Of a stretch of 64,000 nt of DNA, positions 6,089 to 56,866 are shown one piece after another; the stretch's first letter is position 1, and every line of letters begins with the position of its first letter. This DNA comes from Candidatus Latescibacterota bacterium. GTDB taxonomy: Bacteria; Latescibacterota; UBA2968; UBA8231. The translations under genes were made by a program, and so were the position numbers. The notes under the pieces are model-generated. The model did no database searches. It was given only the letters and a program-made list of their open reading frames with translations, and was not told the DNA's origin. The DNA lies in assembly GCA_965248265.1 (NCBI GenBank), contig CBDFJF010000001.1, forward strand, positions 448,001 through 512,000, read 5' to 3'.

Positions 6089-7363
6089 TTACGACATACA
6101 GGACACGATCGACAGGGTTTTGTCGATGACGAGGCGCTCCACGTCCTTCGTGAACGGAGCCGGGCGCAGGAAGTAGCGGTACGAGCCGTCGACCTCATAG
6201 CCGCCAAGGTCATAGGCGTTTTCGCTGGGTACGTAACCGATGAGGCCATTGCTGTACCCGGCGGTCACGGTGTGTGCCGGCTGCAGCCGGTGCTTGAGGT
6301 GCATGCCGATTTCGGAGAGAATTTCGCCGCCGAGGAAGACAACGCGCAACTCAGGATTCAGTTGCAGAATCTGGATTTCCTGCACACAGGAGGAGGGTAT
6401 GCCGCCGGCCTTGTCCAGCGACAGCATGGCCCGGGCCCACTTGCGAAAGTTGGGGTCAGATCCGGCCTCTGCCTCAGACATCGATTCACGAGAAGGTAAA
6501 TCGGTGTAGGGCAGGTTGTGGTAGTCGCTGGCGAGCTGGAGGTCGCCGGCATCAATCTCCGCGGCTCCGTCACGGCTGGCCAGGACGTCGTCGGCCATTT
6601 CAACGCCGACCGCTTCGAGCTCGGCGAGCGAGGGTCTGCTGAAGTCCTTGCCGGCATCTTTGGTGTACCAGGGCTTGACGTCCCCTCCGCAACCGGCGGC
6701 AAAGAATGCGGGCGCGCCCGTGGCCTGTTCGAGCGCCGTGCACAGGTAACCGGGATAGTCAGGGCCGACCATGTGATCACCCAGGCTGGTGGCGTGGCAG
6801 CCGAATACGGTAAGCGTTCCAAGAAGGCCGCCGTCGCTCGCGGCAAACCACAGGGTGTCCAGGTCCCGGTCGATGGAGCCGTCGGGGTACGGCGCAAATT
6901 CGACACCGCCTCTGCCATCGGGCAGGCGCCGGTTCACGCCAAATTCCGAGCGTCCCCGAGAGCATCGGATGCCACCATCCACCGCATTGGCACATGCCCC
7001 AATCGCTATCTCGACGAGGCGTTTTTCCAAGAATTGGGCATAGTCGGACTCGATTTCACCCGGCAGCCCCCAGGGGTAGAAGTAGGGCCCGCCATGGGTG
7101 TGCGTGGCCGTCAGTACGATCTGGCGCGGCAACAGACCGGTCACCTCGCCGATCCGCAACTTGATCCGGGCAGCCGTGGGCAGGTCGAAACCGATGAGGT
7201 CGGCGGTGATGATCAAACCGGCATCGATCTGACCTTTGAGATAGACGGCCCCAGCCCGCAGGGGGTGATAGACACCTTCCGACTTGTGGTCTCGGTGCCC
7301 GTACCCGGTGAGCCAAACAGATTCGCCGGGCGTTATATCACCGCGTGCGACCCCGACCTTCAT
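6089..7363 (-). CDS. Neutral/alkaline ceramidase-like hydrolase
   Basis: VGVARGDITP, ATHTHGGP, VNRR, CHAT, DYPG, GYSNG...GYVP...GGYE motifs. Confidence 0.8.
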   Translation of the reverse strand: MKVGVARGDITPGESVWLTGYGHRDHKSEGVYHPLRAGAVYLKGQIDAGLIITADLIGFDLPTAARIKLRIGEVTGLLPRQIVLTATHTHGGPYFYPWGLPGEIESDYAQFLEKRLVEIAIGACANAVDGGIRCSRGRSEFGVNRRLPDGRGGVEFAPYPDGSIDRDLDTLWFAASDGGLLGTLTVFGCHATSLGDHMVGPDYPGYLCTALEQATGAPAFFAAGCGGDVKPWYTKDAGKDFSRPSLAELEAVGVEMADDVLASRDGAAEIDAGDLQLASDYHNLPYTDLPSRESMSEAEAGSDPNFRKWARAMLSLDKAGGIPSSCVQEIQILQLNPELRVVFLGGEILSEIGMHLKHRLQPAHTVTAGYSNGLIGYVPSENAYDLGGYEVDGSYRYFLRPAPFTKDVERLVIDKTLSIVSCMS

Positions 7364-8580
7364 AGCTTGTCCGCGTGCTCTCGGGTTTTGGCGATGGCAT
7401 TGGCGATGTCGCGGGTATCACCTTCTTCGCCCAGCAGCAGATTCTGGGTGAGCCAGACGGACTCTTCGGCACAGATGCGCTCGGTTACGGGGTACTCGAA
7501 GCGGCTGTAATCCGGCTTGCCGGAAAAATAGGGTGTCTCGAGGGGGTAGTCGGTGAACGAATTGGTGAAAGCCGCCTCTCGATACAGCGGTCGGTACCCG
7601 GACGCGCACGGTATGCCCTCGGCATTCAGGGCTTCGAGGAAGCGCTCTCTTACAACTCCGCCGAAACCTTCCGAGTCGAAGCGCAAGATGTAGAGATGAT
7701 AGGCGTGCGTCGTCACCCGGTCGTCCGTTCTATACGGCGTGACGCCCTCGATACCGGCAAGCAGGGAGGTGAGCATCTGGGCATTTCGCGTGCGTGTTGC
7801 CATCTGCTCATCCAGGTGCTGCAGCTGGGACAGCAACAAGGCAGCATGGAATTCGGACATACGGTAGTTGCTCCCCAGGCGGGGGTGTTCGTACCAGGCT
7901 CCCGCGCGCGAGCGGCCACAGTTGTGGTACGACCAAGCCCGGTCGGCGAGCTCACGGTCGTTGCTGATGACAGCCCCACCTTCTCCTGCAGTCAGGTTCT
8001 TGCTGGCCTGGAAGCTGAAGGTGCCGAGATCGCCAATAGCCCCGACCTTGCGGCCTTTCCAGGCAGCACCGTGCGCTTGAGCCGCGTCTTCGATGAGGGC
8101 GATATCGCGATCCTTGAGGAGCTCCCCGAGGGCGTCGAGATCGGCCGGTTGGCCGCCGATGTGGACGGCAATGACGGCTCGAGTTCGCTCCGTCAGTGCC
8201 TCCTGAGCGCTCGCGGGGTCGATGTTGTAGGTGTCATTGAGGATGTCGACGAAAATGGGTACGCCACCGACGGCGGCTACCGCGGATGCTGTCGCCACGA
8301 AGGTGTAGGATGGTACGATCACCTCATCGCCGGGGCCGACTCCAACGGCGGACAAAGCTACCTGCAGCGCCGTGGTGCCACTGTTGAGAGAGATGCCGTA
8401 CTCTGCTTCCTGGAAGGCGGCAAAGGTGGCTTCGAACTCGTCGATTCGATCGGCCATGCCCCATCGTCCGGAATGGAGCACTCCGGCAACGGCCCCCTCG
8501 TCGGTTTTACCAAATTGTGGCCAGGAGGGGAAGGGCGTCGTCCTGGTGGGGGATCCACCGTTGACGGCGAGGTCAGTCAT
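7360..8580 (-). CDS. DegT/DnrJ/EryC1/StrS PLP-dependent aminotransferase
   Basis: NSGTTAL, GDEVIVPSYTFVAT, EDAAQAHG, FSFQASKNLTAGEGG. Confidence 0.93.
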   Translation of the reverse strand: MTDLAVNGGSPTRTTPFPSWPQFGKTDEGAVAGVLHSGRWGMADRIDEFEATFAAFQEAEYGISLNSGTTALQVALSAVGVGPGDEVIVPSYTFVATASAVAAVGGVPIFVDILNDTYNIDPASAQEALTERTRAVIAVHIGGQPADLDALGELLKDRDIALIEDAAQAHGAAWKGRKVGAIGDLGTFSFQASKNLTAGEGGAVISNDRELADRAWSYHNCGRSRAGAWYEHPRLGSNYRMSEFHAALLLSQLQHLDEQMATRTRNAQMLTSLLAGIEGVTPYRTDDRVTTHAYHLYILRFDSEGFGGVVRERFLEALNAEGIPCASGYRPLYREAAFTNSFTDYPLETPYFSGKPDYSRFEYPVTERICAEESVWLTQNLLLGEEGDTRDIANAIAKTREHADKL

Positions 8581-8667: not shown

Positions 8668-9873
8668 TCAGGCGGCGAGATCCTCTTCGATAGCGACGTC
8701 TTCGCCAAACATCTCCCGCAGAATTTCCCGCTGCTCTGCGTAGGTGCGCATCTCGTAAGCCTCAGGGCGCAATTCTTCGTGCGTGACGAGATACTCAGTC
8801 CACGTCGGTATCTCTTCGCCTTCATCATCGGTGGCGGCCCCATCACCGGTGGCGGCCTCATCGCTGGATTGACCGAGGATCTCCGCGTCCAGTTCTGCCT
8901 GCAGCTCTACCTCATCGACCGGAGCAACCGCCGGTTGCAGGGTTTCGGCCCATTGGACGCAGAACTCTTCGACTGCCTGGGTAACAGCATTACCGTGAAT
9001 GCTGCGTTCAAAGGTAGAGGCAATTACGTGGGCGGACAGCCGATCGAGATCCGGGGAAGTCTCTTCGAGAATGACTTCAACCAGTTCGTGCAAGATCAGG
9101 GTCTCGAAGATGGTGAACCCTTTCTTGGTGCGGCCCCCTTCCTCACCGTCGCCGGCCTGCCATTCATCCATGTACTCATGCAGACCACCGAGCAGGTGAA
9201 TGGCCCCCTCGCGTTCGTAGGCGACGCTTCGGGACTCGAGCAGCGGATACTGAACACTGTGATCGGCTTTGTCTATCACTCTCGTAAAGATCGACAAACG
9301 TGTCTGGTGCCCCGGGTCCAGGCGTTTGGCCATCGTCCGACCAACTTCGACCGGCCTGTTGATGATGGAATCCAGCAAGCTGTCAGCGCGCGGGCTCCAG
9401 ATCTCCATCAGCCGACGTACCTGCTGGGTGCAGGCTACCTCATCAGCCTCATCAGCCGGGTCCGCGACTACGGCCTGCAGCTTGGTTTTTCGGGCTTCGG
9501 CCGACTCTCCTCGGCGAAAATGGAAGGAACCTGTGTGCTTCAACACGGCGAGGCGATCCACCGGAGTTTCGCAGAATCTAGCCAATGCATTCAGCAGCTG
9601 GTACAGTCTCTTTTCGGGATTTGGCGCCGACCGCATGGCGGCTTGAGGCTGCAGGCCGAGCAGTTGGCTGCGCAGCCGCGTCATCATGTTCACCCATGGA
9701 CCGATCTGCCTTCCCGCTTCCTGATCGTAGGCGCATCGCGGATTGGGATCGGCGGCCTCGAGCTCCTCGAGTGCTGCCGTCTCTGGCATCGCTGTGCCGC
9801 CATACCAGAATCTAGGTGCCGCCAATGCCTTGCTGTCGCGGTTCTGGGAAGTTGATGTGATCGAATCGGCCAT
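8668..9873 (-). CDS. Hypothetical protein (HExxE motif, acidic C-terminus)
   Basis: Long ORF with an RBS-like upstream sequence; LILHELVE motif; no family recognised. Confidence 0.6.
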   Translation of the reverse strand: MADSITSTSQNRDSKALAAPRFWYGGTAMPETAALEELEAADPNPRCAYDQEAGRQIGPWVNMMTRLRSQLLGLQPQAAMRSAPNPEKRLYQLLNALARFCETPVDRLAVLKHTGSFHFRRGESAEARKTKLQAVVADPADEADEVACTQQVRRLMEIWSPRADSLLDSIINRPVEVGRTMAKRLDPGHQTRLSIFTRVIDKADHSVQYPLLESRSVAYEREGAIHLLGGLHEYMDEWQAGDGEEGGRTKKGFTIFETLILHELVEVILEETSPDLDRLSAHVIASTFERSIHGNAVTQAVEEFCVQWAETLQPAVAPVDEVELQAELDAEILGQSSDEAATGDGAATDDEGEEIPTWTEYLVTHEELRPEAYEMRTYAEQREILREMFGEDVAIEEDLAA

Positions 9874-13430: not shown

Positions 13431-14600
13431 TTATTCCGTATTCGTCATGATGTGGTGGTAGATCTCGACTGCTTCGAGTACCTGCTCACATTCCACCCAT
13501 TCAACGGCACCATGCGCCTGGTCGATACTGCCGGGCCCCAGGACGATGGCCGGGACTCCTGCGTCAGCGAACGGACTGCCATCCGTGCCGTAAGGGACGC
13601 CGGCGATGGTGGCGTCGCCGAGAACGGCCCGGCAGGCAGCGACGGAGCTGTTGACGATGGGCGCATCCTCGGCCGTGCCCATCGCTCCACAGGCAAACAT
13701 CAACGGTCTCTCGATGCGGGCGTCCAACTTGGAGTCCTCGGCACCGGCGGCTGAGATGATCTGCTCGAATGCACCGACGACGCTCTCAGGCGTGTCTCCG
13801 GGCAGGATGCGGCAGTCCACGGCAGCGCGGCAGCTGTCGGGGACGAAGTTGATCTGAGCGCCTCCTTCGACGATGCCGACATTGAATGTGGGGTTGCCCA
13901 GGAGAGGGTCGCTCCTGGACTCGTACTGCGGACCCAGTTCATCCTCGAGGCGGACGATGAGCCGCGCCATCTTGTTGATGGCGTTAACTCCCAGGTACGG
14001 CTTGGAACTGTGCGCCGCCTTGCCGTTGACGATGATATGGAAGCGGATGACGCCTTTGTGGCCGCGGATAACTTCGAGATCCGTGGGTTCGGCGATGACG
14101 GCGGCTTCCGCATTCACCAGCGGAGCCATGTGCCTGGCGCCACGCATCAGGTGCTCTTCATCCACGGCGCCGGCATAGGCGATCGACATGGGCGGCACGG
14201 TGCCAGTCTCAACCAGTCGTTTCATGGCATGAATCATGGCAACGCCGCCAGCCTTGGTGTCGCATGAGCCACGGCCATAGAGCAGGCCATCGCGGATGTG
14301 CGGCTCAAACGGGGGGATGGTCATGACTTCGGCTGATGCCGTATCCATGTGGCATTCGAACAGCAGGATGCGATCAGGATTCTGGCCTTGTAGTGTGGCG
14401 ACAATGTTGTTGCGTCCCGGCAGCGCTTCTGACAACTGGTAGGGAATATTCAAGTCGGTGAAAAATCCGGCCAGGTAGTCGACCATGCCGGCCTCGCCTC
14501 GGTCCTTGCCCCCTGGAAGCGAGGGATTGACGCTGTCGATGGCGACGACCTCTTGCAGGGTTGCGAGAATCTCGTTTTCACTGCGCGTCCAGGTAGCCAT
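13431..14600 (-). CDS. M20 family ArgE/DapE-like deacylase
   Basis: HMDT, GRGSCDTK, DEE, AEPT, AAHSS, GTDG, GPG...AH. Confidence 0.9.
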   Translation of the reverse strand: MATWTRSENEILATLQEVVAIDSVNPSLPGGKDRGEAGMVDYLAGFFTDLNIPYQLSEALPGRNNIVATLQGQNPDRILLFECHMDTASAEVMTIPPFEPHIRDGLLYGRGSCDTKAGGVAMIHAMKRLVETGTVPPMSIAYAGAVDEEHLMRGARHMAPLVNAEAAVIAEPTDLEVIRGHKGVIRFHIIVNGKAAHSSKPYLGVNAINKMARLIVRLEDELGPQYESRSDPLLGNPTFNVGIVEGGAQINFVPDSCRAAVDCRILPGDTPESVVGAFEQIISAAGAEDSKLDARIERPLMFACGAMGTAEDAPIVNSSVAACRAVLGDATIAGVPYGTDGSPFADAGVPAIVLGPGSIDQAHGAVEWVECEQVLEAVEIYHHIMTNTE

Positions 14601-14606
14601 GAGCAA

Positions 14607-15082
14607 TCACAGAATCCTGAGGACTGAGTTGACGAATGTGGCGAACACGTCGATGCCGAAGAATAGCCTGAGGAGCTCGTGGACCGCCAGCGGTGAGGCC
14701 AGCAAGAAAGCCAGTGGCAGGCTGCTGTGCAGGGAAAACTTCTCGCGGTTTGCGTGAAACCAGGCCCACAGGATGATCAGCAGTGACGCCCCGATGATCA
14801 GGCCACCCAGCAGGTTGAGAATCCAGACCAGAGCAACCGGAAGGCCCCAGATCGAACCGATGATGTTGTAGGAAAATGGCAACAAATTCGCCCAGAACAG
14901 GCGGTGGTCACGGAGGCCCCGTAGACGAGAACGCCGACGCTCAGACTGCCTCCGGCCAGAGCAAACAGGTCGAGTGGCTGGCGCATTGCGGCGTGCCACC
15001 ACGTCACCGTGGCGATGTGGAGCCACATAAAGAACAGCGCCAGGAAGAGGGCCCTGGCATGATTCGGGGGAGTGAAGGACAT
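14607..15082 (-). pseudogene. Small multi-pass membrane protein split by a frameshift (or sequencing error) at the C4 run 14917-14920
   Basis: The hydrophobic N-terminal half (frame of 14798..15082) and hydrophobic C-terminal half (frame of 14607..15026) join at ...GVLVYG / GLRDHRLFW... into a continuous ~158-aa membrane protein. Confidence 0.6.
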
Positions 15083-15102
15083 GGGTGTCGGTTTTTGGCG
15101 AG

Positions 15103-15648
15103 TCAGTTGCTCTGAGGCATCTCTTCGAGTGGAATCTCCTTGACCAGTTTCTCTATTTGCCGGGCCTGTAACTCGCCCAAATCAGCCTTCCTGTCCTCCG
15201 CACCATGTCTACTCACAAACGCGCGCATCTCCCGCATCAATCGCATATGCAGACCCGCCAGCAGACTGCCGCTTTCGACATCCCTGGCAATGTGCTGGTC
15301 AAAGAAGCGCTCCGCCGCCTGACGCACGTCGGGGTCGTTGTATATCTGGAGGTGGTCTTGCTGGACGGGAGACAGGGTGAGTGACACCAGCTGTTCGATG
15401 AAGCGCTCGCGAAAACCGGACATGTCGGGCCGGTTGGGCTCATAGGAGATAAGCTCGCCGATGTGGCGGCATCCCAGTGCCGTGTAGATGCGATCGAGCG
15501 TTTTCAGGTCGATGCGCTCGATGTCGCCGTTCACCAACCGATTAATCTGCTGCCGTGGCACACCGATCTTGCGCGCCAACTCGGCCTGACTGGGTGAGCC
15601 GGGCCGCTCAAGAAGGTCCTTCAGTCTGAACTTCATCATAGTGGTCAT
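15103..15648 (-). CDS. XRE/Cro-C1 family HTH transcriptional regulator with C-terminal extension
   Basis: FRLKDLL...SQAELARKIGVPRQQINRLVNGDIERIDLKTLDRIYTALGC...GELISY is a typical HTH_26-like domain. Confidence 0.88.
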   Translation of the reverse strand: MTTMMKFRLKDLLERPGSPSQAELARKIGVPRQQINRLVNGDIERIDLKTLDRIYTALGCRHIGELISYEPNRPDMSGFRERFIEQLVSLTLSPVQQDHLQIYNDPDVRQAAERFFDQHIARDVESGSLLAGLHMRLMREMRAFVSRHGAEDRKADLGELQARQIEKLVKEIPLEEMPQSN

Positions 15649-15690
15649 CCACGTTCCATGTTATTTACCCACCTTCCGTGGCTTTTGCAC

Positions 15691-15719
15691 AACTTACAAC
15701 TCTACAAATATCGAGTCAA
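15691..15719 (-). promoter_or_regulatory. Sigma70-like promoter for the XRE gene
   Basis: Minus strand TTGACT-N17-TAAGTT in an AT-rich intergenic region. Confidence 0.5.
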
Positions 15720-15734
15720 CAGATTTATGCACAT

Positions 15735-15778
15735 ATGTCATCAAAAGAGTTGACATTCGTAAACACATAAATTACCTT
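15735..15778 (+). promoter_or_regulatory. Sigma70-like promoter of the Ubl operon with overlapping palindromic operator
   Basis: TTGACA (15750-15755)-N17-TACCTT; inverted repeat ATGTCA-N10-TGACAT (15735-15756) overlaps the -35. Confidence 0.55.
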
Positions 15779-15849
15779 GAGCGCGAAATTCATCCATCCC
15801 ATGAAACTTTGTGGGTTATTGTTTTACTATTTGACACTAAGGAGCGCTC

Positions 15850-16157
15850 ATGTTTCAGACCAGCTTGCGCTACGGCATTCAAAAGGCGATGGAGTCCGAC
15901 GTAGAGCCGGAGCAGTTGCGCACAACGGTAGGGCAGCAAAGGTAGGGCAGCAAATCGAGTATTTGCTGGACGAGTCAGATGATCCGCAGGTAACCGCACA
16001 GATTCGCCAGGCCCTGCGGGATCCACAGGCCACGATCGAAGTGAAGTCTGGAAGCCAGATTCAGACGGCTACTCCCAACATGCCTCTGCGTGAATTGTTG
16101 CCACCCAACAGCGAGAAGATCGAGATCACGGTTAGCCAGCCACACGCGGGAGGCTGA
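15850..16157 (+). pseudogene. Ubiquitin-like (beta-grasp) protein with C-terminal Gly-Gly, interrupted by a 14-bp tandem duplication
   Basis: TAAGGAG RBS 5 nt before ATG 15850. Removing one GGTAGGGCAGCAAA copy gives a 97-aa ORF, MFQTSLRYGIQKAMESDVEPEQLRTTVGQQIEYLL...PNMPLRELLPPNSEKIEITVSQPHAGG*. It lies upstream of an E1. Confidence 0.8.
15927..15954 (+). repeat. Perfect 14-bp tandem duplication (GGTAGGGCAGCAAA)x2
   Basis: Directly visible; creates an in-frame TAG at 15943-15945. Confidence 0.95.
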
Positions 16158-16164
16158 TTCACCC

Positions 16165-17550
16165 GTGAATGGTGGTCCCACAGTGCGTCGCCTCCACCGT
16201 GAACGGGAGGCTCGGATCGTGCAAGCACGGATCACGCAACCGTACGGGAGACAACGCACTACAAGGCGGCCGCGGGCCCACAACGGGAGGGCCAACACGC
16301 CAGAGATCGAGCCCGGGTATTTGCACCACGGATTGGTGCCGCACCCGGAGCTGGTCGTTCCCGCGGCTGCATCGCCGAAGGCTCCATTCCCGCTCAGCAT
16401 CGTCAGCGTGCTCGGGGCCACGGGCAATTGTGATGGCGTGTTCGTCCTCGACGGTCAACTGGGACGCTTGTCCCAGCACAAGCAGTCCCCGACAGACCTG
16501 TTTGTCGAATACGGCGGCATCAGGCAGTACATCCACTTCCAAGCAAGCGTTGAGGAGCGACTCGGAGAGACCGTACGTGCGCGGCTGCCCAGCATCTGGC
16601 AGTGGTTCAGCCAGGCGGGAGCTCGGCGCTATGCCGAACTGGATGGTTGGAGCACGCCGCTGTCGGCTGTGGCGGTCGATCGGGTTGACGGATTCGTCGC
16701 GGAGCGGCTGATCCCCTTCATTGAGGAGCACGTCGAGGAACAGGGTGCACTGGAGCAACAACCGAGCGCGTTTTCGTTCGAGTCCGTGGTTGATCGAGTG
16801 ATGCCAGGCCTGGCAGGCTCCTTCGCCTTTCTCGCTGGCCGCTGGATGCGTTTGATTCCCTTCTTCGGCAGGCCCAGGCCAGGACAGCCACTGCTTCGGG
16901 TGGGCAACGAATACCTGGTCGGCATACAATCGCAGCCTTCAGCCGTTGCCGTGGCGACCTACGATACCGCGCTGCGAGATGCCGTGTGCGCCGCCTGCGC
17001 GGCGGCGGCACGCGATGGTGATCACAGCGACACCCGCAGCGGAGGCGATCTCTACAGACAGGAGCCCTACGCCGTGATCCGCACGCCGCGCGGCCGCTGT
17101 TTTGTGTGTCAGCGCCTGCCGCCGTACGTGGTGGAGGGAATGGACAAGAAGCTCTACTACTTCGATGGCGCCGAGATCGGCATTCACGTGACAACGACCC
17201 AGGTGCAGAGCGTCATCACCTGCGCCTGTGTCCAGGTGCTGCATTCCTACAAACACATGTTCGTGGGCACACTGGGCACCGGCAACTTTATCTGCATGCC
17301 TCGAGATCATTCCTACTACCAGGCCCTCAACCGGGAACCGCTCGAGCGCGCTCTCATCGAGCATCTGGAGTCGGCGCGTATGACCCTGTGTGCCGGCTAC
17401 CAACCAGTCAACTCATCAGTCCACCGTATCCAGAGCGTGGGACGTCGGACGATCAGTCTGTCCGAAGTCCGCAGGAGAAACCTGCCCGTCTACTGGTATT
17501 ACGAACCACGCCGGAGCGCGCGCTCGAAAGTCATGTCGATGTTCGTGTGA
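16165..17550 (+). CDS. Uncharacterised protein with putative C-terminal E2 (UBC)-like domain
   Basis: Sits between Ubl and E1, with TGATG coupling to E1. YKHMFVGTLGTGNFICMP followed by an amphipathic helix (LERALIEHLESARMTL) resembles the E2 HPN...G-x-IC catalytic region. Start GTG 16165 is inferred. Confidence 0.55.
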   Translation: MNGGPTVRRLHREREARIVQARITQPYGRQRTTRRPRAHNGRANTPEIEPGYLHHGLVPHPELVVPAAASPKAPFPLSIVSVLGATGNCDGVFVLDGQLGRLSQHKQSPTDLFVEYGGIRQYIHFQASVEERLGETVRARLPSIWQWFSQAGARRYAELDGWSTPLSAVAVDRVDGFVAERLIPFIEEHVEEQGALEQQPSAFSFESVVDRVMPGLAGSFAFLAGRWMRLIPFFGRPRPGQPLLRVGNEYLVGIQSQPSAVAVATYDTALRDAVCAACAAAARDGDHSDTRSGGDLYRQEPYAVIRTPRGRCFVCQRLPPYVVEGMDKKLYYFDGAEIGIHVTTTQVQSVITCACVQVLHSYKHMFVGTLGTGNFICMPRDHSYYQALNREPLERALIEHLESARMTLCAGYQPVNSSVHRIQSVGRRTISLSEVRRRNLPVYWYYEPRRSARSKVMSMFV

Positions 17551-18869
17551 TGGAGCGATACGCACGACAAACCGTCATCGAAGGATGGGATCAGAGCCGA
17601 TTATCGGCGGCGACCGTCGCCATCGCGGGGACCGGCCCCACCGCTTTCATGTGTGCTCTGCTCTCCGTGGCCATGGGCTTCGGTAGGGTAGTGCTGATCG
17701 GCAAGGCCAAATCAACCGAGGCCGCCACCAAAGATCTTCCCGCACTGATGCAGTCATCGAATGACCTCTGGGTTGAGTTTCTGGGGCAAGTTAATCCGCA
17801 GGTGCGCATCTACCCGGTAAGTCGAACATGCTCACCGGAGTTGATTCGCCGATTGCCGCAGCTGGATGGCCTCGTGGTTGCCGGGAATGATGCGCGGGCG
17901 CTCGGGGTTGGCTGTCAGGTGGCGAGTGACGGCGCGGTTCCCGTGGTCGCCGGAGGTAGTGCCGGGCCTGTCGGTGTATGGGGTGCACCACAACTCGACG
18001 GCCTTACGAGCAAGTTGTCGAGATATCCCGAATCGCCGTTGACGGCCCAGATCATCGCCGCGTTGCTAGTGGAGGAGATCCGTAAGGATCTGCTACCCCT
18101 GTCGAATGAGGCGGGCCGTTCCTCGACCAGGAGGATTGTCGCCCTCTCGCGGCTGGCTCCAGAGAAGGCCAACGGTCGAGACCGGCTGTTCAGACTGACG
18201 ACGGACCAACTGCACATCGTCGGAGCAGGGGCCCTGGGAACCTGGTTCGGCATTGGCCTGGGCCTGGCCGGAGTGCGGGCTCAACTACATATCTTCGACG
18301 GGGATCACGTCGAGGAGACCAACCTCAATCGCCAGGTCCTGTTCGCCGGCGCCGTGGGAAAGCCTAAAGCGACCGTGCTGGCTGCCCGCCTGCAGGATCT
18401 GTTTCCGACGCTGCGGACCAACGGCTACGGGACCAGAGTCGCCGCCGACACGGAAGAGATGATGGAAGGGTCAGGCGTGGTCGCCGCGTGTCCGGACAAC
18501 TTCCAGGTGCGCGCCTTTCTCGCCAGTATGGCCATGCGCCGCAGGCAGACGCTTCTCAACGGAGGCACCAGCGCCGTCGGCGGATCCTGCACCGCTTACG
18601 TACCCGGGCACACCAGCTGCCTGTCGTGTCTGATGGACATCGAGCGCCTCGCCCTGCAGGAGATGGCGCCAACCGGTTGCGCCCAGCAGGTGGAGTCGTC
18701 AGTGGTTACGAGCAATGCCGCCATCGGCGCGCTGATGGCCTGGAGCTTCAAGGAGATGAGGTGTGGCCGGGTGCATCCGGGAATCTGGGAATACGACGGG
18801 CGGTCGCACGGTGAGCGCATCGGGGTGCACTCGGTGAGGCCGGCGTGCGAGTGTCATATGAAGGATTGA
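17550..18869 (+). CDS. E1-like activating enzyme with tandem ThiF domains (inactive + active adenylation domains, Zn site, catalytic Cys)
   Basis: Domain 1: RYARQ...WDQSRL...VAIAGTG (degenerate). Domain 2: GAGALG, DGDHVEETNLNRQ, GKPKA, DNFQVR, CLSC, PTGCA, C-terminal CECH. Start ATG overlaps the upstream TGA. Confidence 0.88.
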   Translation: MERYARQTVIEGWDQSRLSAATVAIAGTGPTAFMCALLSVAMGFGRVVLIGKAKSTEAATKDLPALMQSSNDLWVEFLGQVNPQVRIYPVSRTCSPELIRRLPQLDGLVVAGNDARALGVGCQVASDGAVPVVAGGSAGPVGVWGAPQLDGLTSKLSRYPESPLTAQIIAALLVEEIRKDLLPLSNEAGRSSTRRIVALSRLAPEKANGRDRLFRLTTDQLHIVGAGALGTWFGIGLGLAGVRAQLHIFDGDHVEETNLNRQVLFAGAVGKPKATVLAARLQDLFPTLRTNGYGTRVAADTEEMMEGSGVVAACPDNFQVRAFLASMAMRRRQTLLNGGTSAVGGSCTAYVPGHTSCLSCLMDIERLALQEMAPTGCAQQVESSVVTSNAAIGALMAWSFKEMRCGRVHPGIWEYDGRSHGERIGVHSVRPACECHMKD

Positions 18870-18892
18870 CGCTGAAGTTCATGACGGGAAAC

Positions 18893-18989
18893 AGGCACCT
18901 ACGTTGCCATCACGTAATTACCTGTTTATCGCAAACAAACATGGTGGCTCCTCGCGGAATCGAACCGCGGACACGGGGATTTTCGGTCC
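18893..18989 (-). repeat. Att-like direct repeat: tRNA-Phe 3' fragment (18942-18989) plus downstream hairpin
   Basis: Near-identical to 20813-20909 (tRNA 3' 48 nt and the AGGCACCTACGTTGC...ACGTAA...CCTGTTT hairpin). Confidence 0.85.
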
Positions 18990-19192
18990 GGTCCCGAAGA
19001 AAACAAGATCAACCTCTAACACGCATTAAGACACTAGTGGACACCTGCTTGATCATGCTGGGGATGATCTAACCGCCCCGTGCTTGGTCCACCCTCCGAA
19101 TCTCCGTACCCTATCGATCAACCCTGAGCCGATATCCATGCGATCTATTCGAACTCCCCCTGTGTCGGGGTGTTCGGGAAGCCTCATGATGC

Positions 19193-20584
19193 ATGACGAG
19201 TGACAAGAACAAGACAAAGGCGCAACTGCTGGTTGAGGTGAAAGAGTTACGTGAGGCGCGCGCAACCAGTGAATCAGCGGAACGCATTCGAGAGGCAGTG
19301 CTGTCGATGCGGCACAGTGATGACTTGATGAACGTAATGGGGTTGATGGTTGTGGAGTTGAGGCAGCTCGGAATAGAAGATATATGTTGCGGCATCAGTT
19401 TTTTCGATGAAGAGAGCGATCTCCGAATCGATTATTACGGTTGGGACAATCCACGCCATTACGGCATTTCCTGGACCTCGTCTGCGGTGAGGGAGATAAC
19501 CGACACGGTAGCGGGTTACAAATTTGAGCGGAAACTATCGGAGAGTCCCTCGAAAACATTTGAAATCTGGCGCCGGGGCAAGGTGCACCACGGCGGAGAG
19601 GGGATGAAATATTGGATTGAACGGACCAGTCGCGAGTTTGTGGAACGGTTCGGGTTCAGCCGTCCTCTACCTTGGTTTGATCGGGAGGATGTGAACGTGA
19701 CATACGTGCCTTTCGAACATGGAATAGTTCACGCTCTTGGCAGTACGTTGTCAGCTTCCGAGGTGGGGTTCGTAAAACACTTCACTACAGCTCTATCCCT
19801 GGGGTACGTCCGCTTTCGCGACTTCCAGTGCCTTGAGGAAAGAGCACGCCAGCTAGAACAGGAACTGGAGACAGCCCGCGATCTGCAGATGGCGCTCATG
19901 CCAACGGATTCTCCGGCTATCGAGGGACTACAGATTGCAGCTCGTTGCATCCCCGCCACACAGGTAGGTGGTGATTTCTTCCAATACTTCCACACTGACG
20001 ATCGCCTCTCCATTTCCATAGCAGACGTGACCGGCCACGCGATGGAAGCCGCCATCCCCGTAGTCATGTTCGAGGGTGTACTGTCCAGCCAAATGCGTAT
20101 CGGACCGGATCTGGAGAGCCTGTTCACTGCCCTCAATGACGTAATGGCCGATAGGCTCACAGGCCGCACCCATGTCTGTTTCTCCATGGCTCAGATCGAT
20201 ATCAACACCAGAGCAGTTCGCTTCGCCAATGCCGGTTGCCCGTATCCCTACCATTACAACGCGATCTCAGAGACCGTCACCGAGCTTGAGGCCAACGCAT
20301 ATCCTTTTGGTGTACGCGCAGGCACGACCTACCAAGCCGTCGAGGCCCAATTGGAACCAGGCGATCGACTCGTGTTCTGCTCTGACGGCATCATGGAGGC
20401 CAGGAACCCTGAGGGTGAGATGTATGGTTTCGACCAGACGGCTGAGACGGTCCGCCAGGGCTGCCAGGACGGTCTGGCCTCGGAGGCGTTGCTGGATCGT
20501 ATTGTCGTCGACGTGCGATCCTTCAGCGGCGAGCAGCCCCAAGAGGACGATCAGACTATCGTAATTATAGGCGTTGAATCTTGA
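19193..20584 (+). CDS. PP2C/SpoIIE (RsbU-like) serine phosphatase with N-terminal GAF-like region
   Basis: ELETARDLQMALMP, VGGDFF, IADVTGH, NAG, SDGIMEA, DDQT. Confidence 0.9.
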   Translation: MTSDKNKTKAQLLVEVKELREARATSESAERIREAVLSMRHSDDLMNVMGLMVVELRQLGIEDICCGISFFDEESDLRIDYYGWDNPRHYGISWTSSAVREITDTVAGYKFERKLSESPSKTFEIWRRGKVHHGGEGMKYWIERTSREFVERFGFSRPLPWFDREDVNVTYVPFEHGIVHALGSTLSASEVGFVKHFTTALSLGYVRFRDFQCLEERARQLEQELETARDLQMALMPTDSPAIEGLQIAARCIPATQVGGDFFQYFHTDDRLSISIADVTGHAMEAAIPVVMFEGVLSSQMRIGPDLESLFTALNDVMADRLTGRTHVCFSMAQIDINTRAVRFANAGCPYPYHYNAISETVTELEANAYPFGVRAGTTYQAVEAQLEPGDRLVFCSDGIMEARNPEGEMYGFDQTAETVRQGCQDGLASEALLDRIVVDVRSFSGEQPQEDDQTIVIIGVES

Positions 20585-20805
20585 CGTTAGGGTGGACCTG
20601 ACCACGAATGAATCGACTGATTAGACAGGCCGTTCTGATGCTCGATCTGTTCTGCGGGTAAGCCATTGCGTCTTCTGCAACAAGGAAGGGCTCAATAACG
20701 CCGCGGAGAGAGCAGGTACCCAAGTCTCACATGACCACGAAAAGAGTGCGATCCAACAGCTTCGGTACCAAGATAGTCGCCACAAGACGCAAAAGACTGC
20801 ATAAC

Positions 20806-20843
20806 AAAAAAAAGGCACCTACGTTGCTATCACGTAAGTGCCT
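20806..20843 (-). terminator. Intrinsic terminator downstream of tRNA-Phe
   Basis: Minus strand AGGCACTTACGT-loop-ACGTAGGTGCC followed by T8. Confidence 0.7.
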
Positions 20844-20861
20844 GTTTACATTAAAGAAATA

Positions 20862-20937
20862 TGGTGGCTCCTCGCAGAATCGAACTGCGGACACGGGGAT
20901 TTTCAGTCCCCTGCTCTACCGACTGAGCTAAAGAGCC
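20862..20937 (-). tRNA. tRNA-Phe (GAA)
   Basis: Reverse complement GGCTCTTTAGCTCAGTCGGTAGAGCAGGGGACTGAAAATCCCCGTGTCCGCAGTTCGATTCTGCGAGGAGCCACCA: 76-nt cloverleaf, GAA anticodon, encoded CCA. Confidence 0.97.
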
Positions 20938-25175: not shown

Positions 25176-25541
25176 TCAAAAATCGAGGACCTGTTTCAGG
25201 CACAATTCAACAATCCGCATCAGCTGCAATGAGGCCGGCGCCAAGCGTTTGATGGGCTTGCCAGAATCCGCATCATACAAACGCCGATTGTCGATCGCCC
25301 TGATCTGGTCGATCAGAATGTCGGACGGTTTGAGGCCCTTTGTGCGCGCAGGAACCCGAACCCTAAGGGGTTCGGCGTCGTCCACTATGCGAGTTGTGAG
25401 AGGAACCACGATCGTCGAAGGATGTCCCGTGCGGCTCAGGAGATCGCTCTGCAGAACCAGGACAGGACGCGTTTTTCCTGGCTCCGTTCCGCGACGGGGG
25501 CGCAAGTCCGCCAGATAGAACCAACCGCGTTCGATTTGCAT
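25176..25541 (-). CDS. MazF/PemK family toxin (type II toxin-antitoxin)
   Basis: MQIERGWFYLADL...GTEPGKTRPVLVLQ...IVVPLTT...DQIRAID. Confidence 0.9.
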   Translation of the reverse strand: MQIERGWFYLADLRPRRGTEPGKTRPVLVLQSDLLSRTGHPSTIVVPLTTRIVDDAEPLRVRVPARTKGLKPSDILIDQIRAIDNRRLYDADSGKPIKRLAPASLQLMRIVELCLKQVLDF

Positions 25542-25558
25542 CGTCGTAACGCCAGTCG

Positions 25559-25813
25559 TCAACGCCGGGATTCGATTTCCTCGTCGATATCGAACTCGGC
25601 CGCTTCCATCTCCCGGTTGACCTCGAGGTTTTTTCCTCGGCACTTCATGGAGGCATCGAGAAATTTGCTGGCCAGCACCTCCCTCTCGACAATGGTATTG
25701 TACTGCGCGATGGCTTCACGGATGTATGATGTACGCGTCGTAGATCGGCACCCGGCCAGGTAATCGGTCTTCGCCAGCTGTTCTGAGTCGAGCTTGAGGT
25801 TAATCTGAGCCAT
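25559..25813 (-). CDS. Ribbon-helix-helix (CopG-like) antitoxin
   Basis: QINLKLD...TRTSYIREAI, acidic C-terminus, directly upstream of the toxin. Confidence 0.8.
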   Translation of the reverse strand: MAQINLKLDSEQLAKTDYLAGCRSTTRTSYIREAIAQYNTIVEREVLASKFLDASMKCRGKNLEVNREMEAAEFDIDEEIESRR

Positions 25814-25946: not shown

Positions 25947-27641
25947 ATGGCGTCATCGACCAAGGCCGCATCCAGGAAGAAGGGCAAGGCCCCTGCCAAG
26001 TCCAAGCGTCCGCGCGGATCCGGAAAGCCGGCCGCCGTCGAGGCAACGGCGGATTCGTCCAAACCACCGAAGCCCAAAACCAGCGGCAACGGCAAGGCCA
26101 CTGCGCAAACCATGGCGCTCAAGCAGCGCGAGATTTCCGTCTCCGAGTTCTTCAGTCGCAACCGTCATCTGCTCGGCTTCGACAATCCGCGGCGCGCCCT
26201 GTTGACCGGGGTCAAGGAAGCGGTCGACAAGAGCCTCGACGCCTGCGAAGAGGCTGGCATCCTGCCGCAGCTCATGGTCGAAATCGAATCAACCGCCGAA
26301 GACCGTTACATCATGCGGGTTCAGGACAACGGACCCGGAATCGTGAAGACGCAGATTCCGAATATCTTCGGTAAGCTGCTATACGGTTCGAAGTTCCATC
26401 GTCTGCGCATGTCACGTGGTCAGCAGGGGATCGGCATCTCGGCCGCCAGCATGTACGGCCAACTCACCACGGGTAAACCGACGCGGATCATTTCCCGCAT
26501 CAGCACCCGCCGGCCGGCACACCAGTACGAGATCGTCATCAACACGACCAAGAACAAACCCGAAGTCATCCGTGATATAGAGATCGAAGGTGATGAGTAC
26601 CGGCGGGGCACGATGGTAGAGATAGAAATGGAGGCGCGCTATCTCAAGGGGCGGCAGTCCGTCGACGAGTACCTCAGGCAGACGGTGTTGACGAATCCCC
26701 ATATGGAGTTGCTCTTCCGGGCTCCTGACGGCACGGAGACAGTCTACGAGCGCTCAACCAGGGACCTGCCGCAGGAGACGATCGAAGTAAAGCCGCATCC
26801 ACATGGAGTTGAGCTGGGTGCACTGATGAAGATGATGCAGGATACGCCATCCCGCACCGTGCAAGCGTTTCTGACCAGCGAATTCTGCAGGGTGTCGACA
26901 AGGGTCGCAAAAGAGTTCTGCGACACGGCACAGATTCGGCCCACGGCTCGCCCCAAGAGCATAGCCCGAGAGGAGACGGACCGCCTCTACAAGGCGATCA
27001 ACAATACGAAACTGATGAAGCCGCCGACCAATTGTATCGTACCGATTGGAGAAGAGCTGGTGTTGAGCAGTCTTCAGCAGAACGTCGAGGCCGAGTTCTT
27101 CACCTCGACGACGAGGCCACCGGCCGTGTACCGTGGCAATCCGTTTCAAATTGAAGTGGCGATGGCCTACGGTGGCGACATCGATCCCGAGGGGACGCTG
27201 ACGCTGATGCGTTTCGCCAACCGCGTCCCTCTACTGTATCAACAGGCCGCGTGTGCGATAACGAAGAGTGTGATTGACGTGGACTGGCGCAAGTACCGGA
27301 TGAGCCAGAGCGGCAACGCGTTGCCGACGGGTCCCCTGGTGGTACTCGTGCACATGGCCTCGGTGTGGGTGCCGTTCACCTCCGAAAGCAAGGAAGCCGT
27401 CGCCCATTATCCGGAGATCATCAAGGAGATTCGCCTGGCACTGCAGGAGTGCGGGCGGAGAGTGGGTGAGCATTTGGGTCGCCAGCGCCGAGCCGAGGAA
27501 GCCGAGCGCAAGCGCGATTACATTCAGAGTTACATCGGCCACATAGCTGACGCTATTCAGGAGATTACCGGCGACAGCGAGCGCAAACGCAACACCGTGG
27601 AAAAGTCGTTGCGTACGATTTTGGAGAGGAGCCGCTCATGA
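25947..27641 (+). CDS. top6B: DNA topoisomerase VI subunit B
   Basis: [50 protein letters not shown]; Lys-rich N-terminal extension. Confidence 0.93.
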
Positions 27642-28723
27642 GCGCGCTGGTGAAGAGGATCGAGAAGGAAGCGAAGAGCATTCGTGACAAGATTCTGAAG
27701 AAGCAGAAGCCGTCGATGAAGTTTCCTCTGCGCAGCCTGAGCAACGTGCGTTTCGATCCCAAGGCCGGGTACTTCGAGATGGGACGCAAGACGAAGGAGC
27801 GTACGCTGGCGGTGGCCAGCGTTAAGACGTTCGCGCAGTCTCTCAAGATGGTGTCTCTGTCGAAGAGATTGATCGAGACCGACGACATAGCAACGAAGAG
27901 AGAGGCCTATTACGTCGCCAAGGGCTGGGATCCAGAGATGCGCTTCAGTGAGCAAGATGAGTCGGATACTGTCCTCGACGACATCGAGGCCTTTCTTCGT
28001 GTCAATCGAGAGCAGTTGGGGTTCGTACCCGAGGAAAAGGGTGGTGAGGTCGCCGGCAATTTGACCGTCATTGACCAGGACAGTGATAGCGGAGACGAGC
28101 TCGAGATCGACTGCACGAAGTTCGGGTCCGGGGCTTACTCGATCCCGATCTCGGTCGAGCACCTGGGTTTTCGCTCAGACGCCAAGTTCGTCCTCGCGAT
28201 CGAGACCGCCGGCATGTTTCAGCGCCTGTGCAAGCATAACTACTGGCGCACGGCCGAGTGCATCCTGGTGTCCATGGGAGGAGTGCCGACGCGGGCGACG
28301 CGCCGGTTCATCCGGCGTCTGTCCGACGAGCTCAAGATTCCGGTTTACGCATTCGTCGACTGCGACCCCTACGGCATCTGCAACATCTACCGCACGCTGA
28401 AGGTGGGCTCAGGCAACGCCGCCCACCTGAACGAGTTTTTCTGTGTGCCCAAAGCCCGTTTTCTCGGAGTGACCCCCGACGATATCGATACCTACAGTCT
28501 GCCGACGCATCCGATGACGGAGGTCGACATCAAGCGGATTGATGACGCCCTCAAGAATGATCCGTTCGTTCAACACTACAAGCGATGGCAGGAGGCATTG
28601 ACGGGGCTCAAGCAGCGAGGGGAGCGTGCGGAACAACAGGCGTTCGCGGTGCATGATCTGAATCATGTGATTAATACTTATTTACCGGAGAAATTGGAGA
28701 GTGCTGGGGCGTTTTTGCCGTAG
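27638..28723 (+). CDS. top6A: DNA topoisomerase VI subunit A (Spo11-like)
   Basis: TKREAYY (catalytic Tyr), QDESD, Toprim IETAG and DCDPYG, AEQQA; ATGA overlap with subunit B. Confidence 0.93.
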
Positions 28724-53577: not shown

Positions 53578-53647
53578 ATACAAATGAGCACTTATCGAAC
53601 ACTGATTGAGAGTCACTGACCGACCATTCCTCCCCCGAGCCACGCCA

Positions 53648-56600: not shown

Positions 56601-56866
56601 TCGAGGATCGCACCGAGAGCGCTGACGTGATTCTATGGCCGGACGTGTTCGAGCGTTTCGCCGACATCGCGGCCGAGCCCGGACCCTTCGAAGTCTGGGG
56701 GCGCGTGACCGAAGACTGGGGCACCTACTGCCTTGAGGCCGACTCCATTCGATGCGTCGATTGGGAGCCAAACCAGATCGACCTCGAGTTGGCCTCGCGC
56801 CACCTGGAGCGGTCATTTTCGGGAAGCGAGTTCGTCTATGCTGATATCGACACGGAAGCAGCCTGA
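53648..56866 (+). CDS. dnaE2: Error-prone DNA polymerase III alpha subunit (DnaE2/ImuC-type)
   Basis: PHP domain LHCHSSFSF, RGSAANS, FERFL, PDADLD, HPGG, KFDILG, FCKSH, OB fold; adjacent to an ImuB-like gene. Confidence 0.85.
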   Translation: MSGYVPLHCHSSFSFHAGVPSVSELVARCKELGMTAAALTDTDRVSGLILFYTECLRQGVKPILGVELTDPGPSAQRVDGAGVTARPRVLVLARNADGYGDLCQLTTRRHLEAARFRLSEELARPLPNLILITADPSMLGTLAGGANRERLFGELIHHCERTRRRSAQLQVTARALGVPLVASNDAFFIQREDWETHRILTAIGLNSTLSRLQPEELASERAFVCGVSEMKSAFDAQPEAVANTLHVAGLCNVELDLGHWIMPRVSVPAGHSPESYLAALAADGLESNYGSSEVATKARAMAIQQMELEVITKLGYPSYFLMVKEIRDWANHRFSHRYRRPQDCTILRGSAANSITFYNIGVSDLDPIRYDLYFERFLNEERASPPDADLDFGWDERDQALEFMVERWGEDRVAVTCTTNHFRERAAFRETAKVFGYTDEDVSQILASYRTRSKRIEDAQIDRIWELADQIRGKPRFLGQHPGGVLVTNDPISRHVACECSGGEKNRTITQIDMHNGIDELGLIKFDILGNGSLSVLRDSLDQLAEQDIADPNVWDLDKCYGDAAVKDVIRRGRTKGIFYIESPAQRRLNQKSLAETFEEITITSSLVRPAGSQYTQLFVERERKRKQGVRDWDFVHPSLEPILSQTHDVCAFQEDVTRICHEVAGLSFKQADKIRKMMNSHHEGAPTDEVWADTARAFLGGCISHTGLNPEQAAELWERVSSFTGFSFCKSHSATYAQLSFQCTYLKAHYPAQFLAAVISNGHGFYRRDVYLNEARRWGITVLPLDVNESAARYRGRGRYMRPGLMHVRGLRSSILNRLVDERVANGPFAGLSDFCQRLRPRKGADGIHRAEVERLILVGAFDRFDLTQPQSLYLLDELIGHRDDGMDLFSAAGSGAVPSYVPIESVDYSLAERCLRELELLGYMLSGDILEILRLHPGARDTVAARDLGDYAGKGRVKLFGRQVTERMHRVQRSGDPMMFLTIEDRTESADVILWPDVFERFADIAAEPGPFEVWGRVTEDWGTYCLEADSIRCVDWEPNQIDLELASRHLERSFSGSEFVYADIDTEAA

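Follow-up and report, generated by a model that had tools for sequence, protein, structure and literature searches.

A candidate peptidase-less ubiquitin-like conjugation module, inactivated in a Latescibacterota genome

Which chemistry is encoded by a bacterial operon that combines a small protein of a family ending in Gly-Gly, a protein resembling ubiquitin-conjugating enzymes (E2) and a two-domain activating enzyme (E1), with neither a peptidase nor a ubiquitin ligase (E3) beside it? The question is raised by positions 14607-18869 of a 64,000-nucleotide stretch of DNA from a Candidatus Latescibacterota bacterium (assembly GCA_965248265.1, contig CBDFJF010000001.1, positions 448,001 to 512,000 of the forward strand), the whole of which is referred to here as the window. 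A preliminary description had proposed an undescribed minimal ubiquitination-like system, and this stands as the best reading of the locus, except that the local copy proved to be broken. With a probability of about 0.6, we read the locus as a rare five-gene module for a peptidase-less, thioester-based ubiquitin-like protein-conjugation cascade that is dead in this genome, a reading derived from sequence comparisons and predicted structures. Bacterial operons encoding ubiquitin-like proteins (Ubls) have been divided into the Bil and Bub systems (PMC11601603; PMC11601596; 10.1101/2023.09.26.559546). In the parts of these sources considered here, a JAB peptidase is always present in Bil, and Bub combines oxyester chemistry with a DUF6527 protease (PMC11601596; 10.1101/2023.09.26.559546).

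Gene order and predicted components of the module

Two of the five genes lie on the minus strand (14607-15648) and three on the plus strand (15850-18869). The minus strand carries a gene for an XRE/Cro-C1-type helix-turn-helix (HTH) regulator (15103-15648) and, 3' of it and co-directional, a gene for a small multi-pass membrane protein (14607-15082); on the other side of a divergent control region (15649-15849) follow the genes for the Ubl (15850-16157), the E2-like protein (16165-17550) and the E1 (17550-18869), three core proteins with a total of about 1000 residues. The membrane-protein gene is a fifth conserved gene that the preliminary description had left outside the module. For comparison, the five module proteins were searched with tblastn against the window and 13 loci. 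The order Ubl, E2-like protein, E1 was kept, with the genes directly adjacent, in 12/12 loci that reach all three genes. At the junction of the last two, the ATG of the E1 overlaps the stop codon of the E2-like gene as TGATG, and a GGAGG sits within the last codons of the Ubl gene. The arrangement is more than chance, as shown by its recurrence in 12 other loci with protein identities of 27-76%. The XRE and Ubl genes point away from each other in 9 of the 11 loci with upstream DNA, and the membrane-protein gene adjoins the XRE gene in seven loci. Identity across the loci is 63-68% for the XRE protein, 37-56% for the E1 and 27-47% for the E2-like protein, which is the fastest-evolving component.

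The module family is rare. A word-indexed search of 5.8 billion clusters yielded 26 relatives of the E2-like protein at E <= 0.001, including the window's own, and none of these 26 carries a Pfam domain. Among 1.84 billion sequences, the family comprised 68 cluster representatives at E <= 0.001, 34 of them at <= 1e-30; their lengths range from 67 to 508 aa, so that no fused forms were seen. Within the phylum, matches were obtained in 7 of 168 genomes, counting the own genome and one marginal match. A metagenome scan gave nine loci, one of them a duplicate, a pattern search with a 15-sequence alignment gave four, a single-protein scan of the genome-contig collection gave no match, and in the marine run X1 merely short, divergent pieces matched the module region.

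The Ubl gene starts with an ATG at 15850, with AAGGAG eight bases 5' of it. From this start the frame ends after 31 codons at a TAG (15943-15945), and the part that ends in Gly-Gly runs in a different frame to 16157; the two local pieces align with residues 1-31 and 32-97, respectively, of relatives with a length of 97 aa. The cause of the broken frame is the tandem duplication of a 14-bp unit at 15923-15954 on the plus strand (Tandem Repeats Finder: period 14, 2.3 copies, 94% matches, score 57). The local gene is thus a frameshifted pseudogene, not the gene of an already mature Ubl as had been described, and the reported Gly-Gly ending holds for its relatives: the C-terminus is GG-stop in all 26 database members, which are mostly 97 aa (19) or 96 aa (5) long and end in HAGG. 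In alignment A3, whose 26 rows are 24 database relatives and two sequences translated from loci, G96 and G97 are each present in 26/26 rows, and none of the lysines is conserved. An AlphaFold2 model of a close intact relative, with a mean predicted local distance difference test score (pLDDT) of 87.8, has a beta-grasp fold with a bb-a-a-bb-b layout. The best Foldseek rows for this model were Caldiarchaeum ubiquitin, ubiquitin, NEDD8 and FAT10 (probability 0.94-0.98, E ~0.01), and the VIA-align rows were mostly beta-grasp chains with Z 7.0-5.5 over 72-84 residues, including SAMP1, MoaD, BubA (Z 6.7) and BilA (Z 6.7). On these models, the family is predicted to consist of beta-grasp modifiers with a free C-terminal Gly-Gly, and its local gene is frameshifted.

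The E2-like open reading frame (ORF) extends from a GTG at 16165 to 17550 and encodes 461 aa without a family match in Pfam, NCBIfam, PADLOC or PHROG. Its AlphaFold2 model (pLDDT 83.8) was compared with known structures by VIA-align, and 48 of 50 rows, judged by their titles, were E2, UEV or RWD chains with Z 7.2-4.3. The best match was Pex4p (Z 7.2, root-mean-square deviation 4.4, 137 residues), and BubB and Cap2 scored 6.1 and 4.7. At the level of the fold, the C-terminal part of the model thus resembles the UBC-like alpha/beta domain. These matches span residues ~167-430 and begin near residue 167-175, which does not agree with the ~290-aa region that the preliminary description had placed in front of the E2 part. 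The E2-like motif noted there in this protein was confirmed: His364 and Cys377, each present in 51/51 family members, are the sole invariant His and Cys and lie thirteen residues apart in the context Y-x-H-M-F...G-x-x-I-C-M-P-R. We take this pair to resemble the HPN...Cys arrangement of canonical E2s. Within 15 residues after Cys377, no Glu or His is conserved. The local protein keeps all invariant and nearly invariant residues of the family. Its N-terminus is a conserved basic helix (G-P-T-V-R-R-x-H-R-E-R), followed at residues 28-60 by a disordered Arg-rich linker and, further on, by two beta-meander-plus-helix units at ~89-149 and 217-279. Comparison of the two units by hhalign (70.7%, E 3.8e-5, 61 columns) points to an internal duplication, which this N-terminal region seems to hold. 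Residues 62-290 gave no usable match in the ESM Atlas; in a separate observation, the N-terminal region showed weak and unreliable fold hints (Z 2-3.5) to tandem-RWD kinetochore proteins.

The E1 (439 aa) was confirmed to possess the two ThiF-type domains, the four cysteines of the putative Zn site and the candidate catalytic Cys noted before. Its C-terminal half matches ThiF (PF00899, 8.6e-37), and hhalign identifies the N-terminal half as a diverged copy of this domain (99.1%, E 4.7e-19, 166 columns) that lacks the DxD and NLNRQ motifs and begins with an invariant R-Y-x-R-Q; searched alone against the PDB, this half gave chance-level rows only. The protein can be divided into an inactive adenylation domain (1-~195) and an active ThiF-type domain (~200-439), the latter with GAGALG, DxD, NLNRQ, D316, a CxxC...CxC site and the crossover-loop Cys377. 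In the family, R3, Q7, GAGAL 225-229, D250, D252, L-N-R-Q 259-262, D316 and C377 are present in 56/56 sequences, and the four-Cys site is kept less strictly (CxxC at 357/360 in 47/56, C433 in 47/56, C435 in 44/56); the local protein retains all invariant and nearly invariant residues. The crossover segment, G345-S384 in alignment A4, has a length of about 40 residues and contains both the CxxC and Cys377. A distant subgroup in the same alignment (P0197-P0207, 25-28% identity) keeps the crossover-loop Cys, and its CxxC and C-terminal CxC are absent. A single-sequence PDB search with the E1 gave 55 matches, headed by UBA7, UBA1 and UBA3 (2e-13 to 1e-11), and a profile search gave 81, of which the best 60 include MoeB (7.8e-30), UBA7 (1.5e-29), ThiF (4.4e-28), MccB (3.9e-26), PaaA (2.3e-15) and UBA3. 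BilD was neither among the 55 nor among these best 60 of 81 matches.

In the ORFs around five genome and two metagenome loci and in the window, no JAB, DUF6527 or RING protein was found beside the module, and neither were rhodanese, cysteine desulfurase, ThiG, ThiH, MoaE or cysteine synthase. The earlier statement that a deubiquitinase, an E3 and cofactor-pathway partners are missing therefore stands for the ORFs scanned. The sole Prok-JAB of the own genome is located on another contig, and the module flanks contain no CD-NTase. ThiC was encountered ~4 kb from the module in one locus only (G042), and the homologous operons lie outside thiamine, molybdenum-cofactor and tRNA-thiolation surroundings.

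From the computed gene order, predicted folds, invariant residues, E1 duplication and lack of peptidase or E3 neighbours, we infer the chemistry, the choice of target and the repression by the XRE protein as follows. The XRE protein would repress the conserved divergent promoter. The E1, a single chain built as a pseudo-dimer, would adenylate the 97-aa, GG-ended Ubl in its active C-terminal half, and its degenerate N-terminal half would contribute the arginine of RYxRQ. The Ubl would then be handed to the invariant crossover-loop Cys377 of the E1 and moved on to the invariant Cys377 in the UBC-like part of the E2-like protein (461 aa). Targets are probably chosen directly, without an E3, by the N-terminal region of this protein, which is large and evolves fast.

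Control region, gene decay and surroundings

The XRE regulator (181 aa), whose divergent orientation had been recognised before, matches Pfam HTH_26 (5.2e-14) and HTH_3 (2.7e-8); its HTH covers residues ~8-71 and is followed by a C-terminal part of ~110 aa without a family match. In the control region, TTGACA (15750-15755) and TACCTT (15773-15778) are kept at a spacing of 17 nt, together with the inverted hexamers GTCAAC (15715-15720) and GTTGAC (15749-15754). A five-locus alignment of the DNA between the XRE and Ubl genes contains the invariant blocks TTGAC, TACC and AACA, and in L024 and L019, two copies regarded as intact, the GTCAAC/GTTGAC inverted repeats have arms of 18-20 nt. We infer from this conservation a promoter with an XRE operator. 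A generic promoter scan did not flag the TTGACA/TACCTT site, its counts being at shuffle level, so that promoter and operator rest on the conservation of these blocks.

The membrane protein, of ~157 aa, has no Pfam family match. Its gene undergoes a change of frame between 14907 and 14917, which separates an N-terminal part (14918-15082) from a C-terminal part (14607-14906); in tblastn, an intact relative matches the locus with its residues 1-55 and 60-155 in different frames, and reading of three frames and alignment to relatives agree with this frameshift. The hydropathy profile of the protein from L024 shows three hydrophobic regions above the threshold (41-65, 80-113 and 115-138). Within the module, this protein could act as target, sensor or effector.

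Two of the five module genes are consequently broken in the window, the Ubl and the membrane-protein gene. Contigs from three public runs of one sample, which may be the assembly's own source and in which rare variants are dropped, cover 14500-15778, 15751-17386 and 17361-18970 without differing letters or gaps, and both lesions are accordingly present in the run contigs. Genes that look split account for 1 of the 36 other Pfam-annotated genes of the window as opposed to 2/5 in the module (hypergeometric p ~0.035, post hoc). A second Ubl copy was not found in the own genome. Judged by its sequence, the module is inactivated in the genome of the window, and, as the E2-like protein and the E1 are still intact, its loss of function is probably recent.

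Lesions are also present in other genomes. The Ubl gene of G099 has a 1-nt deletion, in G098 both the E2-like and E1 genes are frameshifted, and G101 (L009) has a frameshift in the E2-like gene and, at 6696-7835, an IS630-type element with DDE_3 and HTH_32 ORFs inside the membrane-protein gene, whose halves flank it. In G042 (L012), an AT-rich insert of ~0.3 kb (~8762-9024) separates the N- and C-terminal parts of the E2-like gene, and the Ubl gene is directly preceded by a pair of IS3-type transposase genes and a fragment of a phage integrase. By tblastn, six of the metagenome loci seem to be intact. The fast evolution of the E2-like protein and the repeated lesions would suit a conflict system, although the lesions outside the window could be assembly errors.

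The flanking genes vary between loci: here they encode an M20 peptidase and an enolase-type protein, and elsewhere MetE-like, MFS, M16 peptidase, PrsW and bactofilin proteins and insertion sequence elements. PADLOC E1-E2 models match the E1 weakly over residues ~200-360 (best 5e-13), and beyond this generic ThiF part no PADLOC match was obtained in the module; PADLOC 2.0.0, a library of 2023, has no model for the Ubl, the E2-like protein or the membrane protein, a result that is compatible with a role in defence. Bacterial tagging machineries of this type have so far been investigated mostly as defences against phages. A role in defence or stress is suggested only by analogy to Bil, Bub and the cyclic oligonucleotide-based antiphage signalling system (CBASS), and the surroundings give it no support.

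The tRNA-Phe repeat mentioned in the preliminary description is real, consisting of a 110-nt direct repeat with 85% identity (18880-18989 and 20800-20909); what it brackets is a SpoIIE/PP2C gene and not the operon. The tRNA-Phe gene lies at 20862-20937 on the minus strand, and the repeat unit corresponds to its 3' ~48 nt plus ~60 nt downstream. Enclosed is a lower-GC segment of 1.9 kb in which a phosphatase of the SpoIIE/PP2C type is encoded (19193-20584, Pfam 6.9e-42), and the pair has the appearance of an insertion remnant or of a duplication that arose locally at tRNA-Phe. That the operon is part of a tRNA-Phe island was rejected, because the repeats enclose 18990-20799 only and no integrase was found between them; the GC content of the operon (0.59-0.65), which is like that of its surroundings, also counts against it.

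Elsewhere in the window, the one control gene that appears split encodes a Y-family (impB/mucB/samB) polymerase in two overlapping ORFs of different frame (56733-57293 and 57157-58110), just after a DnaE-type polymerase gene (53606-56866), an arrangement that looks like a frameshifted error-prone polymerase cassette. Adjacent genes at 25947-28723 encode the subunits B and A of topoisomerase VI (Topo-VIb_trans 1.5e-59; TOP6A Toprim 1.9e-59), an enzyme that is uncommon in bacteria, and a PemK/MazF-type toxin gene is located at 25176-25643 (1.9e-23).

Weighing of alternative explanations

Several observations weigh against a conjugation cascade. None of the 26 Ubl members matches any ubiquitin hidden Markov model (HMM) at E up to 1, and in VIA-align MoaD and SAMP1 are no poorer matches to the Ubl model than ubiquitin is. 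For the E2-like protein, the UBC fold was matched, though just at a modest Z of 5-7.2, and such values (<8) can reflect a common arrangement; its model found nothing in the PDB by Foldseek at E <= 0.001, the top rows being unrelated, re-alignment of Foldseek's own PDB list by VIA-align gave nothing above Z 3.7, a profile of 51 sequences had no match among PDB sequences at E <= 10, and 0/51 members match any Pfam E2 family (UQ_con, Prok-E2_A-E) at E up to 1. The active half of the E1 is, by sequence, about equally near to MoeB, ThiF, MccB and the eukaryotic E1s; taken together with the likeness of the Ubl model to MoaD and SAMP1, this makes sulfur-carrier chemistry possible. Five of the six genome-resolved copies carry at least one core-gene lesion, a pattern that may reflect genuine decay or errors of assembly; the lesions checked against other data are those of the window. 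In addition, the neighbours of the module are housekeeping genes and not a defence island, none of 42 pattern matches in viral contigs was confirmed and no viral-contig relatives were found, and no target, E3 or deconjugating enzyme is known for the module.

The alternative that fares best, which we nevertheless consider unlikely, is a sulfur-carrier or cofactor pathway, in which the E1 would produce a thiocarboxylate on the Ubl (as for ThiS, MoaD, CysO and TtuB) and the E2-like protein would use its Cys as an enzyme of sulfur relay or of biosynthesis. The active half of the E1 does score best against MoeB and ThiF in the PDB profile search and shares with MoeB a short crossover loop with a Cys as well as the four-Cys site, the Z values of the Ubl model against MoaD and SAMP1 are the same as against ubiquitins, and the Gly-Gly end, like that of sulfur carriers, requires no processing. 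However, the sulfur-pathway partner genes are absent from the five genome and two metagenome loci and from the window, and the NCBIfam scores of the E1 are far under the cut-offs (ThiF, TIGR02356, 94.9 vs 275 bits; MoeB, NF006444, 80.1 vs 449). We know of no tandem inactive-active E1 among the sulfur-carrier E1s. The conserved and translationally coupled partner with a UBC fold and an E2-like His...Cys pair likewise speaks against such a pathway, and an XRE repressor combined with a patchy distribution, in 7/168 genomes of the phylum with one marginal case, is unlike a housekeeping pathway.

Somewhat less probable still is that the XRE and membrane proteins form an independent two-gene unit, such as a toxin-antitoxin-like or stress pair, and that the module proper consists of three genes. 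G042 and L023 do carry the three core genes without an XRE or membrane-protein gene, and the XRE protein is far more conserved (63-68%) than the E2-like protein (27-47%). Yet in 9/11 loci, over a protein divergence of 27-76%, the XRE gene has remained divergent from the Ubl gene and shares a conserved control region with it, and in G042 the place upstream is taken by a transposase of the IS3 type. A C-terminal modification of the MccB/PaaA kind, akin to ribosomally synthesised and post-translationally modified peptides, or a His/Cys protein that is a peptidase or transferase, with the 97-aa protein as modified substrate or scaffold, could draw on the MccB and PaaA profile matches, on a His/Cys pair that might serve a cysteine hydrolase and on the lack of an HMM link to E2s, but is improbable given a His 13 residues before the Cys with helices after it, E2, UEV or RWD chains in 48 of the 50 best VIA-align rows, a folded beta-grasp in place of a short leader-core peptide, and no conserved exporter, immunity or further tailoring genes adjoining.

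With the peptidase-less conjugation cascade as the preferred reading, a bolder version of it can be put forward tentatively, as one joint claim whose parts are judged together and which is more doubtful than the cascade itself. Next to Bil and Bub, the module might represent a third class of ubiquitination in bacteria, thioester-based and without peptidase or E3, in which the E1 would be a present-day intermediate between the homodimers of ThiF/MoeB and the E1s of eukaryotes, having within 439 aa a eukaryote-type pseudo-dimer and a MoeB-type crossover Cys and no Cys or ubiquitin-fold domain. The E2 would contain a duplicated substrate receptor, the membrane protein would be a target or effector, and the decay would reflect a costly conflict system. 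If true, Cys chemistry, a ready Gly-Gly end, the lack of a peptidase and a compact E1 without Cys domain would widen the picture drawn from Bil and Bub and provide a small, tractable system for the origin of the eukaryotic E1 architecture and for target choice independent of an E3. It would also be a testable candidate conflict or stress system in the Latescibacterota, which to our knowledge have few or no cultured members.

Comparison with known systems

The statements on Bil and Bub in this section follow the parts of the cited sources considered here. The closest resemblance in organisation is to Bil, with the gene order Ubl-E2-(DUB, deubiquitinase)-E1 and three separate proteins (10.1101/2023.09.26.559546; PMC11601596), a single-chain E1 in which an inactive adenylation domain precedes an active one and which carries a four-Cys Zn site, Cys-based catalysis, and no E3, the Bil E2 being thought to choose the targets. 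In contrast to Bil, the module lacks in 13 loci the JAB peptidase BilC that is encoded in the Bil operon, its Ubl ends exactly in Gly-Gly and needs no processing, and its E2-like protein of 461 aa has a ~290-aa extra region. In the E1, judged by sequence length, a crossover segment of ~40 residues stands in place of the helical CYS domain of ~80 aa. The E2 of type II Bil contains a CEHH motif (PMC11354881), whereas here the His is upstream of the Cys.

Bub also encodes Ubl, E2 and E1 together, and its type II is usually without JAB (PMC11601596); BubB and BubA are among the fold matches of the module proteins (Z 6.1 and 6.7). Bub, however, employs Tyr/Ser oxyesters and has no catalytic cysteines (PMC11601596), as opposed to C377 in 56/56 E1 and C377 in 51/51 E2-like sequences. 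Bub is described with the DUF6527 serine protease BubE and with fusions (Ubl-E2, JAB-E1 and E2-E1) (PMC11601596), neither of which was found in the ORFs scanned here. Cap2 of type II CBASS has the ThiF-type adenylation domain in common with the module but is an E2-E1 fusion that conjugates the CD-NTase and is accompanied by the JAB protein Cap3, whereas neither fusion nor CD-NTase nor effector is present here.

With MoeB and ThiF, the module shares an active E1 half with MoeB-type motifs, a short crossover loop with a Cys, the CxxC...CxC site and a GG-ended carrier; these enzymes, in contrast, are single-domain homodimers without an E2 partner and are encoded in cofactor operons, and the module scores far below their cut-offs. 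The inactive/active adenylation pseudo-dimer is found in the eukaryotic E1s NAE1-UBA3, UBA1 and UBA7, which are heterodimers or single chains, and a His shortly before the catalytic Cys, then G-x-x-I-C, in eukaryotic E2s; the module E1 differs in being merely 439 aa long, and neither a separate Cys domain nor a ubiquitin-fold domain is recognisable in it. Literature searches led to work on Bil, Bub and CBASS only and to no account of such an architecture; the supplementary operon tables of these papers, outside this comparison, may list related operons. The proposed cascade would work in the manner of Bil without its peptidase. As the module lacks defining features of Bil, Bub and CBASS Cap2 and, by the features compared, belongs to none of these families, the most fitting reading is that of a new variant, free of a peptidase, among the bacterial ubiquitination-like systems.

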